Source: Acholeplasma laidlawii PG-8A (GTDB taxonomy: Bacteria; Bacillota_I; Bacilli_A; Acholeplasmatales; Acholeplasmataceae). Taken from it: 32,000 nucleotides of DNA. Position numbers and translations under genes: made by a program. This document shows, one piece after another, positions 2,367 to 10,104 of the stretch (its first letter is position 1; each line of letters begins with the position of its first letter). The notes below the pieces were generated by a model. The model saw nothing but the letters and a program-made list of their open reading frames with translations. It ran no database searches and was not told the DNA's origin. Where the stretch lies: assembly GCF_000018785.1 (NCBI RefSeq), contig NC_010163.1:810001-842000 (forward strand). The letters run 5' to 3'.

Positions 2367-2433
2367 TGTAGTTTCTCTTTTTTAGGTGTTTTGAGATTGT
2401 GAAATGTCTGAGTTGGCATAGTTCCTCCTGTTA

Positions 2434-2484
2434 TGACAAGGTTGTCACATTTATAGAATACACTTAACCTTTTTCCTTGTCAAG
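2434..2484 (-). promoter_or_regulatory. Candidate sigma-A promoter plus palindromic operator of the tetR-ABC operon
   Basis: Read on the minus strand: -35 TTGACA (2483..2478), 17-nt spacer, -10 TATTCT (2460..2455). A perfect 6-2-6 palindrome TGACAA-CC-TTGTCA (2447..2434) lies between the -10 and the AGGAGG SD. Confidence 0.5.
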
Positions 2485-2742
2485 CAAAAAAACTGATATG
2501 TAGTGATAAAAGTTGATGACTTATCTTTTTTCCAAAATATCAATTATACCTTTGTCATCCATAAACGTTTTTATAATCTCTGTTTTTAATTGATTTTGTT
2601 ATTTTAATATATAAATCATTCATCTTTTAAAAATTCAGATAGTTTTTTAGAACAAATGCCTCCTGTATAAAAGGTTATAATCCGGCAAATACAGAATAAA
2701 AAAATCAATAGAACTAATAAAAGATTAATCAAGTTGCTATAG

Positions 2743-2919
2743 GAACATTACAATGGTTATGATTTATACAATCTATATCCTGAAGTGACTGACAATAAAA
2801 AACAAGTGGATTTAGAAGGCAGTAAAAATTTAGATTTCTTAGATAAGCTAATAGAGCAAATTGCAAAGGACACAAGAGATGAAATTTTGATCTTTGGAAG
2901 GACAAAGATAATACCATAA
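2743..2919 (+). pseudogene. Start-less C-terminal fragment of an unidentified gene
   Basis: 58 sense codons directly after a TAG with no start codon: EHYNGYDLYNLYPEVTDNKKQVDLEGSKNLDFLDKLIEQIAKDTRDEILIFGRTKIIP*. The composition is protein-like. The tracked antisense ORF 2729..2923 is probably its shadow. Confidence 0.3.
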
Positions 2920-2974
2920 ACATTTGAAAAATTTTGTTAAGAAATCCTAAATCAAATAGTATTAATAAGTATTT

Positions 2975-3072
2975 AAGGGTGCGATGTTTTTTACGGGCTA
3001 CTAAATTCTAAAAATAGTTGACCTAACACATATTAACAAAACAGTGTTGATACAATTGTATCGACCTAATAG
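2975..3072. repeat. Left arm of a long imperfect inverted repeat (partner at 5521-5668)
   Basis: 3040-3065 aacagtgttgatacaattgtatcgac is the exact reverse complement of 5534-5559. The match extends to 39 bp with 2 mismatches (3027-3065 vs 5534-5572). It contains the palindrome GATACAATTGTATC (3049-3062). Two minus-strand repeats, TTAGTAGCCC (3004..2995) and TCGCACCCTT (2984..2975), start 20 bp apart. Confidence 0.85.
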
Positions 3073-3215
3073 AATATGAAAGTAAGAAGAATTTGCCTCC
3101 ATTCATTTCATTTTACAATGATTTGAATAGAAGCATTCTTTTTTTATTGTGTCCCACTATATTGGGTCAGTTCCATGCGACTAGTAATAGTCGTATTTTT
3201 TTATATCTAAAATAA

Positions 3216-3246
3216 ATAAAAAAGAAGTCACCTTAAATGACTTCTT
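3216..3246 (-). terminator. Intrinsic terminator of trpB
   Basis: Minus strand: AAGAAGTCA-tttaagg-TGACTTCTT followed by a T-run, 9 nt after the trpB stop. Confidence 0.75.
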
Positions 3247-3254
3247 CATATATA

Positions 3255-4430
3255 TCAATCAACGATTTCAAAACCTCTAAACCTAGCAATATGCTTAACA
3301 TCTTTATCGCCACGACCAGATAAGTTAACAACAATAATCTGATCCTTTGGTAAAGTTTTTGCAAGCGATATTGCATAGGCTAGAGCATGAGAGGATTCTA
3401 TTGCAGGTATGATACCTTCTATAAGTGTTAAATACTCAAATGCTTGTACAGCTTCTTCATCTGTTGCACCAAAGTAAGTAACACGTTTAATTTCATCTAA
3501 ATATGCATGTTCTGGACCAACACCAGGGTAGTCAAGTCCGGCAGAAATCGAGTATACTGGTGAAATTTCACCTTTATCATCCAATAAAACTTTAGTCTTC
3601 ATTCCATGAATAACCCCAGTTTGACCAAGTGTCATCGTAGCAGCATGTAAATTTGTATCTAAACCTTTACCTAACGCTTCAACGCCAATAAGTTTTACAG
3701 TAGGATCCGGAATAAAATCAAAGAATGCACCAATTGCATTAGACCCGCCACCAACACAAGCAATGACATAATCTGGTAGTCTATTTTCTAATTTTAGTAT
3801 TTGTTCTTTAATCTCAATACCAATAACTTTTTGGAAATCACGAACCATCATCGGATATGGATGTGGTCCAACTGCTGAACCAATTAAGTAAAACATTGAT
3901 TCATGTTCAGTACTCCATTTTATTAAAGCACTATCAACAGCTTCTTTAAGTGTTCTTAATCCTTCTTGAACACTAACTACAGTTGCACCTAAAAGTTGCA
4001 TCTTATAAACATTAAGTGCTTGTTTTTCAACATCTACTGCACCCATATGAATTTCACATTCTAAACCAAGTAGTGCTGCTACAGTTGCAGTGGCTACACC
4101 ATGTTGTCCAGCACCTGTTTCTGCAATCAACTTCTTTTTACCCATACGTTTAGCAAGTAACGCTTGCCCAATGACATTATTAATTTTGTGAGAACCTGTA
4201 TGATTTAAGTCTTCACGTTTTAAATATACTTTTGCACCACCAAGACATTCTGTTAAGCGTTTAGCAAAATACAAATTAGAAGGTCTACCAGCATATGTAT
4301 TGAGTAAGTCTTTAAATTCTTCAATAAATGCAGGATCATCCTTGAATTTATTATATGCATCCTCTACTTCTTTAATTGCGGTAAGTAAGTACGGTGGTAA
4401 GTATGCCCCACCAAATTGTCCAAATTCCAT
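3255..4430 (-). CDS. trpB: Tryptophan synthase beta chain (TrpB1-type length, 391 aa), stand-alone
   Basis: Motifs [25 protein letters not shown] (PLP lysine), [20 protein letters not shown]. No trpA or other trp genes occur in the window. Confidence 0.93.
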
Positions 4431-4444
4431 TTTCTTTCTCCTTT

Positions 4445-4756
4445 AGTATTATTAATATCTAGATAAAATAAAAACCCCTACATGGTTATCCATGTAAGGG
4501 ACGAATATATCGTGGTGCCACCCTGATTTAGAAATCTAAAAAGATTTCCCTCTTTCACATACGCTAACATTGAAGTTATTAATATGTTAACCCCTATAAC
4601 GTGGGGTATATCGTCATTCGCTACTTACTTTACGTCATTTCACAAATGCTTCTCAGCAATCCCATTCACAAGGTTTCATTTATACCTACCTTTCACCTTT
4701 GGTAAGCTCGCTTATCATAAAGAAATGACTTGTTACTATTTTGCATCTTCGAATTT
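4445..4756 (-). promoter_or_regulatory. T-box leader (tRNA-sensing riboswitch), probable Trp specificity, with terminator/antiterminator
   Basis: Minus strand: T-box sequence AAATCAGGGTGGCACCACG (4529..4511). Terminator CCCTTACATGG-ataa-CCATGTAGGGG plus a T-run (4500..4465). Candidate specifier GAA-UGG-G, with the TGG at 4664..4662. Confidence 0.85.
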
Positions 4757-4761
4757 ATCTC

Positions 4762-4790
4762 ATTATAAGACAAATAAATACTAATTGCAA
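4762..4790 (-). promoter_or_regulatory. Promoter of the T-box-trpB transcript
   Basis: Minus strand: -35 TTGCAA (4790..4785), 17-nt spacer, -10 TATAAT (4767..4762). Confidence 0.6.
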
Positions 4791-4843
4791 CCCTAAAGTT
4801 AAAAAAAGAACCAATAAGTATTTATTGATTCTCAGACCGTTGA

Positions 4844-4887
4844 AAAAGTATTTTACTCAGATGGTTATTGGGTAAAGTACTTTTTTT
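4844..4887. terminator. Long hairpin flanked by A- and T-runs (possible bidirectional terminator or insulator)
   Basis: AAAAGTATTTTAC (4844-4856) pairs with GTAAAGTACTTTT (4872-4884), giving 13 bp with one G-U and a 15-nt loop. T7 follows and A5 precedes. Confidence 0.45.
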
Positions 4888-5083
4888 CTTTCTATTGTAT
4901 AATATTTGTTTGAAGATTGAGTTTGGTCCTTGCGGCGTCGATTGCTAATAACGGTATGACATTGAGATCACTTAATAGACCTACATCTGTTTTGGAATCT
5001 TCCTTTTTAATTTTCCTTGATTAATATTCATAATTACTATATAAAATGTATATAGTAAAACTTATTTATAGGGGTATAAGTAT

Positions 5084-5497
5084 ATGTTTATGAATGAAGA
5101 TAGATTAAAGGATGAATTTATTCTTTCAACTTTAAATGATTTTGTTCCTGAAGAACACTTAGTTAGAAATATAACTAAATGGGTCGATTTTTCTTTTATC
5201 TATGACTTAACCAAACCTTATTATTCAGATAAAGGTCGTCCTGCCATCGATCCTCTTGTCCTTTTTAAAATTCCTATTATTAAAAGTTTGTTTGGTATTT
5301 CATCTATTCAAAGAACTTGTGAGGAAATTCATGTCAATGTGGCTTATCGTTGGTTTATTAATTTGCCATTCTCTGAAAAAATACCTGACCATTCAACTTA
5401 CTCTAAAAATTATACGCAGCGCTTTTATCAAACAGATATTTATCATCAAATTTTTACGAACGTTCTGAATCAAATTATCAAACTGCTCTGCTACTAA
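5084..5497 (+). pseudogene. IS1182/IS5-type transposase, N-terminal fragment only (137 aa)
   Basis: FVPEEHLVRNI...YSDKGRPAIDPLVLFKIPIIKSLFGISSIQRTCEEIHVNVAYRWF...IPDHSTYSKN matches the DUF772-type transposase N-domain. No DDE catalytic part follows. Confidence 0.7.
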
Positions 5498-5520
5498 AAA
5501 AGGGATTATCTCCCTATTTT

Positions 5521-5668
5521 CCTATTCTTTAAAGTCGATACAATTGTATCAACACTGTTATGCTAATATGTGTGATGCTACCTATTTTAATACAAATTAG
5601 CACCCCATGAATTTTTTTAGCACCCTTTGCCTAATTTTAGCACCCCTACTGAAAAGTTGCGCACTCCC
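5521..5668. repeat. Right arm of the inverted repeat, with four 20-bp-phased direct repeats
   Basis: Core 5534-5559 gtcgatacaattgtatcaacactgtt, with the palindrome at 5537-5550. TTAGCACCCC starts at 5597, TTAGCACCCT at 5617, TTAGCACCCC at 5637 and TTGCGCACTCCC at 5657, an exact 20-bp period. Confidence 0.85.
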
Positions 5669-5768
5669 TATGAAGTATATTATTCAAGTTAAGACATTAT
5701 TACTTAAAATGCCCACTATATTGATATGAAGCAGCCTTTACGATCATATTTGTAGAGTCTAGAAATTA

Positions 5769-6015
5769 TCAAAGTTCATATTGTAGTAGTTGATTAACAG
5801 CACTTTCTACATGAAATCTGAAAATTTCCTTAATATCTTTACCTTCGACTAGCGTTTTTAAGATTTCTAATGTAAAATTATTCATGAGGGATCTCCTTTG
5901 TATATTGGTTTTAGACAACTCTATTATACTGAAGTGAGATTCCTTTTTTAATTATATTCAGATTTTCATTTACACAAAATATTTTACACTATGATTTCTA
6001 AACTGTACGTCTTTC
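5769..6015 (-). mobile_element. IS256-family remnant: left end plus the first 38 codons of the transposase
   Basis: Minus strand: AAAGGAG SD, then MNNFTLEILKTLVEGKDIKEIFRFHVESAVNQLLQYEL* (5885..5769), which resembles IS256/Mutator transposase N-termini and then stops. The upstream GAAAGACGTAC...GTGTAAAA resembles the IS256 terminal repeat as I recall it. Confidence 0.55.
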
Positions 6016-6132: not shown

Positions 6133-7767
6133 TCATCCTGCACAACAAGATAATTTTGAAACATCTTTATCAAACGCTAGTGCTGCTAATTTTAACCCCT
6201 CGGCCATTGTTAAATATGGAGCAAGACTATCTATAAGATTTTCAATAGTAAGTCCATGTTTTACCGCTAGTAATGCTGCATAAATAACATCTCCTGCATT
6301 TTCAGATACAATATGTGCACCTAGTATTCTATGTGTTCTTGTATCTGCAACCAACTTAAATATGCCGGTTGTTTCACGATTTACTATTGCTCTGGGGACT
6401 AAATTTAAATTGATTACAGAAGTTTTTACTTCATAGCCTATATTTTTAGCTTCTTTCTCTGTTAATCCAACGGTTGCAATTGCTGGGTTTGTAAAAGTAA
6501 CTGCAGGTACAGTCGATAAATCGATTTTTTTATTTAATCCGCCTATAGCATTGTCTGCAACAATTCCACCTTCATATGCTGCCACATAGACAAATTGTGG
6601 TCCTAAAGTAACATCTCCAGCTGCATAGATTTTATTGTTACTCGTTCTTCCATAATCATCTATTATAATTTCATTGCTTTCTCCTACATTAACGTCTGCA
6701 GCACTTAAATTTAAAGTGTCTGTATTAGGTTTTCTTCCTGTTGCAATCAATAATTGTTCTGATTCAATAATCTCATTTTTACCATCAACTGTAATATAAA
6801 CCTTTTTGATATCACCAATTTGTTCTATTCGTTCGTAAGCTACACCTTTAATAAGTTCTATACCTTGTTCAATCAATGATTTTTCGACAGTATCTGAAAT
6901 TTCAGGATCATAGTCTTTCAGAAGTTGTTTTCCCCTTTGGATAATCGTGACTTTTGAACCTAAATTATGAAAAAGTTGCCCCAGTTCTAATCCAATATAT
7001 CCTGATCCAATCACTGTTAATCGTCTTGGTGTTTCTTTTAAATCAAGTAATGTTGTGCTTGTTAAATAATCAACAAATTCAAGTCCATGAATTTTAGGTA
7101 TATAAGACGATGCTCCAGTAGCAATTAAATAATTTTTTGCAATATATCTATTATCATTAACTTCAATTGTTGTTTTATTAATAAATCTCGCTTCACCTTT
7201 AACTAAATCAATACCGTATTCATCGATTAAATTTATATATTTCTGACTACGAAGCTCATTGACTAATTCATCTTTTTGTTTTACTAAAGTTGCTAAATCC
7301 ACTTTTTGAGCATTTGTTTTTAAGCCAATGAATGGATTAGACTTTGCTGCTTGATTGATTTCTCCTGCTCTAAGAAGCGTTTTTGATGGAATGCAACCTA
7401 CATTTACACAAGTCCCTCCAACTTCCCCACGTTCAACAATAGCAACTGTTGCACCGTATTCTATTGCTTTAATTGCCGCAGAAAAAGCAGCAGCCCCAGA
7501 TCCAATTATAATAAGATCATAAATCTTATCCTCACTATCGTTTTTATTAAAGGATACTTCTTCTATCATTCCAGCTTGATACTTAATATTATTTATCGCA
7601 ATTTTTGAAAGTTCGACATCAGTATCTTTTGGAAGTTCAAATATTGCTTCTCCATTGTGAAAACTTGCTTTAACATTTATTGCACCTATTTTTTCAAGTG
7701 CTTCCACTATGTGACCCTCGCAACCTTTACAAGTCATCCCTTGTATTTTCATCTTAAGTTTTTTCAT
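6133..7767 (-). CDS. merA: Mercuric (Hg2+) reductase MerA with N-terminal HMA (NmerA) domain
   Basis: N-terminal GMTCKGC, FAD motif GSGAAAF, redox-active [14 protein letters not shown]-terminal vicinal pair KLSCCAG. 544 aa. Confidence 0.9.
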
Positions 7768-7856: not shown

Positions 7857-8126
7857 TCAAAAATATGTTATATTTTCTTGTTCTTTTCTCAGTTGATGCT
7901 CATCTGCCGTTTCTGTTTCTGTTAAAACTTCATAGCCAACAGCTTTTACAGCCTTTTTAACATCTTCGATAGAAACTTTATCCATATCATAATCAAAGGT
8001 TAACTTTTCGGTTGTTAAATTGACATTGACATTTGTTATACCATCTAGTTTAGCTGTTGCTTTTTCAACAGATGCTACACAGGATGCACATGTCATACCT
8101 TTAACACTTAAATTTTCATGTTTCAT
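7857..8126 (-). CDS. Heavy-metal-associated (HMA) domain protein: CopZ-like chaperone or the 5' remnant of a copA P-type ATPase
   Basis: GMTCASCVASVEKA...VNVNLTTEKLTFDYD is CopA/CopZ-like. There is no signal peptide, so it is not MerP. The 20-aa tail ADEHQLRKEQENITYF resembles the linker that precedes TM1 of CopA. Confidence 0.75.
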   Translation of the reverse strand: MKHENLSVKGMTCASCVASVEKATAKLDGITNVNVNLTTEKLTFDYDMDKVSIEDVKKAVKAVGYEVLTETETADEHQLRKEQENITYF

Positions 8127-8252: not shown

Positions 8253-9746
8253 TGTAATGCTTTAGTTTTCTTTTCTTGGAGAAGATTCTAATGAACCCTC
8301 ATATTTATTATATATTATTTAAAGAGCGATTTCTATAATCAATAGGATTCGTTTTTAATTTTAGAACGATTCTAGTGTTGTTATAGTATTCAATGTATTC
8401 ATCAATACCTTTAATTAATTCATCAGCTGAATTAAATTCATCTTCATGTCCATACCACATTTCATCTTTGATTCTGCCAAAAAAGTTTTCGGTCGGACTA
8501 TTATCTAAACAGTTTCCTTTTCTACTCATGGATTGAATCATCCCTAATTCAATTAGTCTCTCTTGATATCTCGAATTTTGATATTGTATGCCTTGATCTG
8601 ATTGGATCATCATACCCTCAATTTGATTTCCATGCTTTTGCTTCAATTGAGTCAGCATATGCATCACTTTATCGACCTTGGCATCTTTGGCTGCTACATA
8701 AGACAGAACTTCTCTGGTATTAAAATCAATAACTGGAGATAAATAAACTGCTGCGTTTTTAACTCTAAACATTGTAATGTCTGTACCTGCTTTTTCAAAG
8801 GGTCTTGTTGTTATAAATGTTTGTTTCATATGATTAGGCTTTACATATCCTTTATCCCCTTCATATGATGAGTATTTAAGCCATTTCTTGCTTCTAAACT
8901 TAAGATATCCTTTGGCTCTCATAATCTCTAAAACTTTATTGTTTCCTATCTTATATCCTAAATTCTTTAATTCAATGTAAATCGCGTTGTAATGCTGTCT
9001 TTTTTTATGCTTCTTTAAATATAACTCATCAATTTTATCTTCAATTTCTTGATACTTATTTACCTTGTTTTTAATGACTGATAGATTGTAATCATAAACC
9101 GATGGTGCCATATCTATGATTGCTAGAAGATGTTCTAATTTGTGTTTCTTCCTTAACCCTGCAACAATTAAAACTTTATCCTTATTTGTTGCTCCTTCTA
9201 GCTTTTGGGTTAAGGACTGAGATTTTTTTAAGTATTTTATCTCTGCACGTAGTCGCTCGTTTTCTTCCTTTAATTTTTTATCTACGATATTTCTTGCTCG
9301 CTCATCTTTTAATACATAATTCTTTCTTGGATATGTATCTTGTACGCCTGCTTCACCTTTGTTTTTATAGTTCTTAATCCAGTCTTGTAAAATGGTCGGA
9401 TCTGTTAATCCAAAATCAAGCGCGACACTTCTGATTGATTCATTACCTTCAAGCACTCTTTTTATCGCCAATAGTTTGGTATCTCAATAGTATATCTTGC
9501 CTTCTCGATTCAAAAATACCTCTGAACCGAATTTTTTGTACAAATTGACATTGTACTTAATATTACTGACATCGTAATTATCATATGCTTGTTATATATG
9601 TGATAATGATTTACCTTTCAGTAAATGTTCCTCTACCATTTTTAATTTCATTTCCTGCGTGATTCTCATAAAAAAAGTTCCCCTATCTTTAGATTGGTTA
9701 TATTCATTATAACCTTTCTCCAAGATTTGGAAACTATTTCATTCTA
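8253..9746 (-). mobile_element. IS3-family insertion sequence (IS150-like), about 1.5 kb; ends uncertain by about 5 bp
   Basis: Imperfect terminal inverted repeats. The left end TGTAATGCTTTAGTTTTCTTTTCTTGGAGAA and the reverse complement of the right end TAGAATGAAATAGTTTCCAAATCTTGGAGAA agree at roughly 22 of 32 positions. The element encloses an rve/DDE transposase frame. I found no clear target duplication. Confidence 0.7.
8308..9669 (-). pseudogene. IS3-family transposase (single fused frame) with two in-frame stop codons in the N-terminal HTH region
   Basis: The frame from the ATG at 9669 gives MRITQEMKLKMVEEHLLKGKSLSHI*, with TAA at 9594..9592. It continues ...REGKIYY*, with TGA at 9486..9484, then DTKLLAIKRVLEG..., and runs into the tracked 387-aa ORF (leucine zipper, HTH, DDE core GTDITMF...SDQG...NCLDN). 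Confidence 0.8.
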
Positions 9747-9749
9747 GTA

Positions 9750-10104
9750 TGGTGGAACCGATGGGAGTCGAACCCATGTACGAGACTTTTCTTCTATTAT
9801 AATCTACATGTTTAGTCAATTTAATAATTTAATACCGCTTAGTAAATTAACAAAATTAGCAAGTACGAGGCTAGTTTCGAATTTTCATGCTATACACCTA
9901 GACATATGTATAACCATAACATGCTTTACTGAGGCAAGTCTAAAGTCACATGTAAACTATTAGAGTGCCAAGCAATTTGTCTTAATTAAGCAAATGCTAA
10001 AGTTTGTGTTTGGTTTCCGGTTATTATAACCTCGTGTTTTTAAGCGCACTACCGCTACATGCATATAATAGATTCCAGGCCCCGGCAAATCCATAAACGG
10101 CCCC
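9750..10104 (-). ncRNA. ssrA: tmRNA (transfer-messenger RNA)
   Basis: Minus strand: 5' GGGGCCG pairs with CGGTTCC-ACCA at the 3' end, including a G3:U wobble. T-arm GGGTTCGACTCCC. Internal tag frame GGA AAC CAA ACA CAA ACT TTA GCA TTT GCT TAA (10018..9986) gives (A)GNQTQTLAFA*. Confidence 0.93.

Follow-up and report, generated by a model that had tools for sequence, protein, structure and literature searches.

The 32,000-nucleotide stretch of the Acholeplasma laidlawii PG-8A chromosome analyzed here (contig NC_010163.1, positions 810,001–842,000; hereafter the window, whose own numbering is used throughout) contains the gene trpB enclosed by two inverted, non-coding repeat arms. The trpB gene (3255–4430, − strand; Pfam PALP) ends at its own terminator (3247–3221) and is preceded by a T-box leader (4494–4758, − strand; Rfam T-box, 108.5 bits). 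Between the promoter of trpB and the right arm lies the truncated 5′ part of an IS1182-family insertion sequence (IS) element (4832–5496, + strand), which includes an open reading frame (ORF) at 5084–5497 with a DUF772 domain (PF05598). We propose, with a probability of about 60%, that the arms are two copies of a widespread junction module between tandemly integrated mobile units that insert exactly at the 3′ ends of tRNA genes.

Positions 3040–3065 are the exact reverse complement of 5534–5559, and this 26-bp perfect core contains a 14-bp palindrome, GATACAATTGTATC, at 3049–3062 and 5537–5550; both features had been recognized in the original prediction, which was made from the sequence of the window. 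When up to 3 mismatches are allowed, the core has two matches in the window, both of them in the arms, compared to an expectation of 0 from 100 shuffles. The ungapped arms delimited by a repeat search (3011–3090 and 5509–5588) are 80 nt long and 83% identical. The predicted outward extension of the similarity is confirmed by a gapped alignment, which reaches approximately 2967–2975 and 5668 at a mean column identity of 76%. The inner side of the arms was described as stopping abruptly at a shared CTATT (3072 and 5521), but the homology continues to 3110 on the left and to 5496 on the right. Matches to the right arm begin exactly at 5496 in eight related loci in BLAST searches, and a terminator scan identified a terminator-like hairpin, AGGGAGATAATCCCT, followed by a T-run at 5515–5501 (− strand), within sequence previously regarded as unique. 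The real inner edges of the arms are thus located at about 3110 and 5496. There are only two copies of the arm in the window and the 6.7 kb beyond it.

Each arm is a junction of two different units, and is composed of the terminator-bearing end of one unit (H-end) and the iteron-bearing end of another (I-end). The H-end of the right arm (5496–5568, − strand) consists of 20 nt, a first hairpin containing the palindrome (5534–5553), and a second hairpin, GGGAGATAATCCC, with a T-run (5515–5496). It resembles an intrinsic terminator at the end of the unit to its left, with a fold z-score of −2.9 on the − strand. The I-end of the right arm (5569–5670, + strand) is intact. It begins with the core dinucleotide TG at 5569–5570 as part of TGTGTG, and continues with the outer motif ACCTATTTTAATACAA (5580–5595), three iterons TTAGCACCC at 5597, 5617, and 5637, and one degenerate iteron at 5657–5668. 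About 30 loci start to match the right arm at 5565–5570 in BLAST searches.

The left arm is built in the same way and is oriented oppositely. In its H-end (3031–3110, + strand), the first hairpin, with the palindrome at 3049–3062, is intact, the second hairpin and the T-run are degenerate, and the fold z-score is only −1.2. The I-end of the left arm (2967–3030, − strand) is decayed. It contains TGTGTTAGG, an outer motif with a 2-nt deletion (CAACTATTTTTAGAA), and two degenerate iterons (TTAGTAGCCC and ATCGCACCC) of the GTACCC subtype, as in loci L055, L181, and L008 (loci compared with the window are designated by L and a number). An nhmmer profile of 76 family members assigns 76.7 bits (E = 4e-23) to the right arm and 23.6 bits (E = 1e-6) to the left arm. 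The right junction is intact, and the left junction is a decayed relic in the opposite orientation.

The H-ends of the two arms belong to the same subtype and are 75% identical overall, including the perfect core. The I-ends belong to different subtypes and are 62% identical. The outward decay of similarity therefore reflects the combination of a shared inner-block subtype with different outer-block subtypes, and the perfect core reflects the shared H subtype rather than a duplication. In BLAST comparisons, the left arm is 82% identical to L055 over 128 nt and 80% identical to L181, and is thus closer to these loci than to the right I-end. The suggestion that the arms are facing element ends with their interiors directed outwards holds insofar as both arms contain ends of outward-running elements, which, however, do not derive from one element by copying or inversion.

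Two short segments may be further remnants of such units. Downstream of the right I-end, positions 5697–5737 (+ strand) contain a putative inverted outer motif, ..CCCACTAT, and a pseudo-tRNA 3′ flank, and could represent the decayed far end of a minimal unit starting at 5569; this weak assignment was made by hand, by visual comparison with the 16-locus consensus TTGTGTCAAAATAGGTTATTCCACTA|TCTACTTATTGTTGGGTATCGAACCC. The right junction would then be followed by what looks like an empty minimal unit, extending from 5569 to approximately 5737. The second segment (3145–3178, + strand), TTATTGTGTC..CCCACTATATTGGGTCAGTTCC, is a direct repeat of 5712–5723, and was weakly assigned as an inverted outer motif with a pseudo-tRNA flank based on the repeat search and visual comparison with the same consensus.

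The arms belong to a family that was ascertained through a single motif, CTATTTTRATACAANNNNNNACCC, drawn from the conserved part of the module. The arms are not confined to this locus, since the motif matches at least 120 loci in GTDB species representatives and 17 viral contigs of IMG/VR. Among the matches listed, the hosts are mostly Acholeplasmataceae, Mariniplasma, Izemoplasmatales, Anaeroplasmataceae, and unclassified Bacilli, together with a few obvious chance matches. The only match among annotated plasmids is an 88-bp stretch of the Tenericutes MO-XQ plasmid (CP017949), which displays TTAGCACCC repeats spaced every 20 bp. No phage was matched in BLAST searches, whether the whole region or an arm served as the query. 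The expectation that the ends would match no IS or transposon family agrees with the Rfam, plasmid, and phage searches, which were empty for the ends. In 13 of the 17 viral contigs, the module is positioned at most 830 nt from a contig end, and the viral DNA is located on the iteron side in 11 of these 13. Only the closeness to contig ends was interpreted for the viral contigs; a fixed offset of about 138 nt from locus starts, considered as a sign of physical genome ends, is an artefact of the 8-kb blocks used for genome loci. Two other search patterns were discarded. The core palindrome produced a single chance match within a gene, and an iteron-only pattern matched mostly unrelated coding repeats in viral contigs.

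The I-end has a sharp start, TG(T/G)(G/C)T (at position 5569 of the window); its TGTGT is followed by ACCTATTTTRATACAA and by three to five iterons (..YACCCC) phased at 20–21 bp. The motif CTATTTTRATACAA is positioned exactly 13 nt after the TG in all 90 modules compared (measured from TG to CTATTTT). The iteron period is 20 bp in 124 cases and 21 bp in 65. Within a module, the 10-nt iteron word is 71–100% identical, whereas the spacers are only 26–41% identical. Across modules, the words contain GCACCC (87), GTACCC (9), ACACCC (5), or ATACCC (5). On the strand that leads out of the I-end, the H-end contains one hairpin or two, and then a T-run. A terminator-like hairpin with a T-run is present in this orientation in 68 of 85 modules, and the stem sequences vary. 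In BLAST searches, matches to the right arm have either their end at 5570 or their beginning at 5565–5570, which indicates that the H and I blocks recombine independently at this point. Loci L128 and L181 have their iterons and 3 kb of sequence in common, at 95% identity, and differ in their H-ends.

Additional iteron arrangements were observed. Some iteron classes lack ACCCC (L008, 606–660; L166; L164; L159; L074) and read TAATCGTGT(A) or TAATCGTTAAA, sometimes interleaved with ..ACCC words. In L169, the unit reads AATCACGCACCC, so that the iteron may be bipartite. One end of a 49.5-kb viral contig carries three I-ends arranged head to tail with no H-ends between them (L008, 822–1080, corresponding to L189, 16426–16713), each with a different iteron word: TTCGTACCCC, TTAGCACCC, and TACGC(A)CCC.

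The smallest units, of 150–250 bp, contain only the two ends and the iterons, and have imperfect inverted ends of approximately 26 nt. No gene is a constant neighbor of the 107 modules inspected. The cargo is varied and includes AbrB/RelE-like pairs, Fic, a helix-turn-helix (HTH) pair, GmrSD, AAA ATPases, and lipoproteins, as well as toxin-antitoxin and Abi-like genes. One two-gene cassette of 1.36 kb (L146, 3133–4309; also L052, L077, L102, and L139) encodes a 215-residue protein without a Pfam match and a 179-residue protein with a C-terminal HTH_3 domain. It is present at 81–91% DNA identity in five genomes of different genera, with the module ends as its borders.

The boundaries of the units can be located by comparing loci. 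The segment 77–918 of L049 is 99.9% identical to 40–881 of L092; it begins at an I-end and terminates with ..CAGA|TG, beyond which L092 continues with the CCA end of a tRNA-Leu(cag) gene and L049 with the next I-end. The locus pairs L050/L077, L100/L133, and L125/L157 (97.8–99.3% identity) start to match at TGTGT and run in the direction of the iterons, and are unrelated on the other side. Such near-identical segments shared between loci extend for 0.5–3 kb from the TGTGT boundary, on its iteron side. Each of three H subtypes abuts, at one and the same base, either a tRNA CCA end or an I-end, depending on the genome. The H subtype of the window (89–92% identical) adjoins tRNA-Leu in A. granularum (L129), tRNA-Gly in L055, and a third tRNA in L088. 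It is therefore mobile and is not a native tRNA terminator. The H|tRNA and H|I junctions have only the TG in common. Of the 22 tRNA-containing loci, 21 have their tRNAs in the orientation of the cargo. Arrays of units are present in L003, L049/L092, L120, L121, L123, and L146.

The I-end retains a TYGA sequence in the register of the tRNA T-loop, at +19 to +22 from the core. This register may explain why both tRNA ends and I-ends serve as targets, although it is suggestive only. The tRNA-like flanks of the modules were rejected as real tRNAs, since ARAGORN detects no tRNA at the majority of them. A conserved non-coding sequence of approximately 250 nt with repeated AAGTAACATAT words is present in L066 (approximately 6580–6895, reverse strand), L152, L122 (approximately 230–520), L130 (approximately 5500–5765), and L177 (880–950). 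It terminates in a tRNA-like T-arm and acceptor (..AATAGGGTTCAAATCCCCTTTACTGGAC) that directly adjoins I-ends, and has no match in Rfam or ARAGORN searches. It could be an unknown tRNA-like RNA gene that acts as a target.

The junction forms a 52-bp imperfect dyad, TTGTATCAAA-N15-TG-N15-TTTGATACAA, with its axis inside the TG. In 90 modules aligned on the TG, TTGTATCAAA is located at −25 to −16 and TTTGATACAA at +18 to +27. The complementarity of the two halves amounts to 7.66 of 15 positions at a single register and to about 4.5 at other shifts, with a maximum of 5.49 in shuffled controls. The left motif of the dyad was outside the search pattern. The central TG is the dinucleotide common to I-ends and reverse-complemented tRNAs (TGG...). 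Crossover sites of large serine integrases are dyads with a 2-nt core, and their use creates no duplication beyond the core. The 52-bp dyad fits an attP-like crossover site of a serine recombinase, by analogy to these systems.

Pairs of large serine recombinases (LSRs; Resolvase, Recombinase, and Zn_ribbon_recom domains) are encoded in 16 of the approximately 135 loci searched, and no other recombinase family recurs. The LSR genes form a conserved operon that codes for a protein with an HTH and a Zn-ribbon (~135 residues), a SHOCT-like protein (~119 residues), LSR2 (~431 residues), and LSR1 (~535 residues), and an I-end follows 0–5 kb downstream. The four-gene operon is positioned at the end of phage-like elements in L171 (305–3809), L169 (3953–7451), L003 (10337–13226), and L173 (7384–10255). 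In the MO-XQ plasmid, two LSR pairs flank a prophage-like block. A motif upstream of LSR2 was considered as a candidate att site and discarded, since it matches by chance within a conserved ORF. AT-rich DNA lies next to the iterons, and in the MO-XQ plasmid, two iteron sets flank an AT-rich gap of 60–80 bp. We infer both a link between the LSRs and the module and the existence of an iteron-binding protein.

We propose that the family ranges from empty units of 150 bp to prophage-sized elements, and is common in Acholeplasmatales, Izemoplasmatales, and related Bacilli. A unit would consist, in this order, of an H-end beside the tRNA, a promoter, cargo co-oriented with the tRNA, the iterons, and an I-end. 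The terminator hairpins of the H-end would stop read-through from the tRNA or the neighboring unit. The distal I-end would comprise three to five phased iterons, followed by TTGTATCAAAATAGG and ..ACACA. Insertion would occur exactly at the terminal CA of the tRNA CCA, or at an existing I-end, the last 27 nt of which partly mimic a tRNA 3′ end. Since existing I-ends would also serve as targets, the units would pile up in arrays. The likeliest enzyme is the LSR pair of autonomous members, which may also move the small cassettes in trans. The iterons are a putative binding-site array for a separate specificity protein; our best guess for the protein that reads them is a replication initiator acting on the excised circle, and alternatively it may be an accessory recombination factor. 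We also put forward, tentatively and at less than even odds, a more specific form of this mechanism. It would be a cassette-accretion system with a site that mimics two facing tRNA 3′ ends, with T-loop-like TTTGA/TCAAA sequences 17–23 nt from the central CA/TG. Such a site would enable insertion after essentially any tRNA gene or earlier unit, the terminator carried by the unit would restore tRNA 3′-end formation, and the iterons would provide an element-specific second layer of recognition, for example in replication or directionality.

Several observations weigh against the proposal that the arms are junctions of tRNA-targeting units. There is no recombinase near the arms and no LSR in the window, and the opposite orientation of the left arm is left unexplained by the model. 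About 88% of the modules have no LSR within the locus examined. Among loci encoding LSRs at most 60% identical to the L169 enzyme, 53 of 56 have no module, and the more distant LSR relatives were thus rejected as a general marker of the module. LSR1 proteins that are 96% identical are accompanied by different iteron words; therefore, LSR1 does not read the iterons and another protein must do so. LSR att sites are not known to have iterons. The search pattern partly fixed the right half of the dyad, and the mimicry of the tRNA T-loop is partial, with TYGA in register but no stem. Leading-strand bias could account in part for the co-orientation with tRNAs and with flanking genes. Neither excised circles nor empty sites were seen, nor was a complete element with both of its ends.

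The closest known systems are the staphylococcal and enterococcal chromosomal cassettes (SCC/ECC) and the att sites of LSR prophages; we found no description of the junction module in the literature on Acholeplasma iterons, repeats, and serine recombinases. SCC/ECC are moved by the LSRs CcrAB or CcrC and are inserted at the 3′ end of rlmH. The module resembles them in the paired LSRs that accompany it in some loci, of which the best NCBIfam match is CcrB, in that units are inserted right at the 3′ terminus of one conserved gene, in tandem accretion, in the many recombinase-less cassettes with the same junctions, and in the accessory and defense cargo. However, the CcrB model scores only 130–173 bits relative to a cut-off of 900, and there are no orthologs of CcrA, CcrB, or CcrC among the module LSRs. 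The module differs further in its hosts, which are Acholeplasmatales and Izemoplasmatales, in its target, where rlmH is replaced by the CCA ends of many different tRNA genes (Leu, Gly, and others) or by a pseudo-tRNA end, and in that its units bring a terminator beside the target and an iteron array beside the crossover site. The attP sites of LSR phages such as A118, phiC31, and Bxb1 are imperfect dyads of about 50 bp with a central crossover dinucleotide, and the integrase operon is located near one end of the prophage. The module shares the dyad form, the absence of duplication beyond 2 nt, and the operon near the element end. It differs in its iterons, generic tRNA target, and junctions that persist as arrays; we know of no LSR att site with adjacent iterons, and the integrases known to us target one specific gene and not a generic tRNA 3′ end.

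In tRNA-associated islands, including tyrosine-integrase islands, the accretion of cis-mobilizable and integrative and conjugative elements (CIME/ICE), and tycheposons, the crossover takes place inside the tRNA gene, and a duplicated tRNA 3′ fragment is identical to the target. These islands are similar to the module in forming tRNA-anchored tandem arrays with non-autonomous members and cargo co-oriented with the tRNA. In contrast, the module shares only TG/CA with its target, the same ends are positioned beside different tRNAs, and no tyrosine recombinase recurs. Origins of staphylococcal pathogenicity islands and phage-inducible chromosomal islands (SaPI/PICI) and of iteron plasmids, as generally known, also have short iterons, an element-specific word, and an adjoining AT-rich stretch. 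The module, however, has no adjacent initiator gene, and its array is fused to a recombination junction. Co-oriented small accessory-gene cassettes separated by a conserved site of 150–250 bp are reminiscent of the attC arrays of integrons. Unlike integrons, the module is accompanied by no IntI-type tyrosine recombinase that we could find, its center consists of direct repeats and not a folded attC hairpin, and its cassettes carry their own terminator and promoter.

In a different explanation, the arms are relics of iteron-type replication origins that came from a satellite, a phage, or a plasmid. The iterons would then bind Rep, and the palindrome would be an operator over an inward-facing rep promoter, an arrangement known from SaPI origins and from lactococcal theta replicons of the pCI305 type. 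We consider this unlikely. The 20–21-bp phased iterons with conserved words and free spacers, and the two iteron sets around the AT-rich DNA of the MO-XQ plasmid, conform to an origin and are compatible with our favored guess for the iterons themselves; however, neither a rep gene nor any conserved gene adjoins the 107 modules. The sequences TTGATA-17-TAGAAT and TTGATA-17-AAGAAT overlap the palindrome and face inward, but promoter-like matches occur at chance level (19 found vs 20.6 expected), the site would fire into a terminator 25 nt away, and the palindrome was rejected as a promoter or operator based on the chance frequency. An origin also leaves the sharp TG joint, the abutment to tRNA CCA, and the arrays unexplained. 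The same joint could be read as the end of a DDE transposon, or of a miniature inverted-repeat transposable element, resembling Tn7, Mu, or Tn402, with a TG start, multiple subterminal transposase sites, and homing downstream of tRNAs. The 5′-TGTGT terminus and the minimal units of 150–250 bp with imperfect inverted ends of ~26 nt agree with such an end, and the three to five contiguous ~20-bp repeats are reminiscent of the TnsB sites in the right end of Tn7. We nevertheless regard a DDE end as rather improbable. TnsA/B/C, TniA/B, and other conserved transposases are missing; units in L130, L183, and L049/L092 are not flanked by target-site duplications; the insertion is flush with the CCA and not 20–60 bp downstream; and the dyad is centered on a dinucleotide common to both partners. 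The IS3-type rve genes near seven modules are ordinary IS copies, and no copies of the motif are present at the ends of the IS3 element in the window.

Transcription of the module as a structured or small RNA, namely a C-rich anti-Shine-Dalgarno small RNA expressed from an extended −10 element, or its role as a repeat-bearing 3′ untranslated region, appears very improbable. The outer motif does contain an extended −10-like TGATACAAT, the module is positioned between stop codons and terminators, and in a subset of modules, a hairpin formed from the last iteron (ACCCCTAAA...TTTAGGGGT) is followed by a T-run. However, terminator-like hairpins in that orientation are present in only 43 of 138 modules, at scattered positions, and the window has none; a small RNA with its own terminator was rejected because it fits only a minority of the modules. 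No Rfam family corresponds to the module, as a T-box and one tRNA were the only matches in the window and 15 loci. Different copies have different iteron words and keep the phasing, as expected of DNA-binding sites, and the junctions with tRNA ends would remain unexplained. Finally, the inverted 26-bp perfect core in copies 2.4 kb apart, at a locus fixed in near-identical strains, could be taken for a local duplication-inversion relic or an invertible switch around trpB. We find this barely credible: the iteron subtypes of the arms differ, copies in other genera are more similar to each arm than its partner is, there is no invertase, a single orientation is present in five assemblies, and in one relative, trpB has the left arm beside it and no right arm.

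Comparison with relatives clarifies the position of trpB. Four further assemblies are 99.5–99.97% identical across the locus (in chromosome LS483439.1), and all five assemblies have it in one orientation. The metagenomic relative L244 is 98.8% identical over 2370–4831 and contains the left arm with three single-nucleotide differences. Upstream of the T-box promoter of trpB, the place of the IS1182 fragment and the right arm is taken in L244 by a YhaM-like (HD-domain) gene with its terminator. The homology breaks at 4831/4832, which is the start of the IS1182 fragment. The synteny is thus fixed in near-identical strains and does not extend to L244. The YhaM-like gene of L244 (1–560, compared with 4783–4831 of the window) was not found in the window or in the 6.7 kb beyond, which indicates a larger rearrangement in the PG-8A-type lineage. 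Because of the L244 arrangement, with a left arm and a YhaM-like gene, we consider trpB to be ancestral chromosomal DNA and not cargo, in agreement with the original prediction that the segment is not a transposon carrying trpB. The right arm was probably placed beside trpB by an IS1182-associated rearrangement, and the presence of arms on both sides of the gene appears to be an incidental, lineage-specific juxtaposition and not a functional unit. The trpB gene stands alone under its T-box leader with no other trp genes nearby, in what looks like an indole-salvage arrangement.

Genes of a TetR regulator and an ABC transporter are located to the left of the left arm (226–2366, − strand). Positions 2486–2558 are 85% identical to a sequence of the MO-XQ plasmid (L003, 34941–35014) beside an IS1595-like gene, and probably represent what is left of an IS end, which cut short the unit lying left of the left arm. 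A fragment coding for the N-terminal part of an IS256-family transposase (5769–5998, − strand; ORF 5769–5918), with approximately 75% DNA identity to Enterococcus ISEf1, is positioned close to the outer edge of the right arm. It is followed by genes identified from Pfam matches, which encode a MerA-like reductase (6133–7767, − strand), an HMA-domain protein (7857–8126, − strand), and an IS3-family transposase (8308–9471, − strand), beyond which lie lysine-biosynthesis genes. Positions 9750–9790 (− strand) contain the 3′ half of a tRNA, comprising the T-arm, acceptor, and CCA (TGGTGGAACCGATGGGAGTCGAACCCAT on the + strand), and there is no full tRNA anywhere in the window. Because all the genes from there down to 3255 are on the − strand, this half-tRNA may be the anchor or an att remnant of an island that includes the merA-like gene, the IS3 element, and the right arm.

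For the A. laidlawii locus, our interpretation would turn a puzzling inverted repeat into two scars of mobile elements, with trpB not being mobile cargo. The signature of hairpins, a TG-centered dyad, and phased ..YACCCC iterons would mark element boundaries in poorly studied wall-less bacteria and their phages. If the proposal is correct, the module belongs to a system in which a serine recombinase uses the tRNA 3′ end as a generic, structure-like target. Such a system would explain the build-up of accessory genes beside tRNAs in small genomes, and may provide a tool for multi-site integration.

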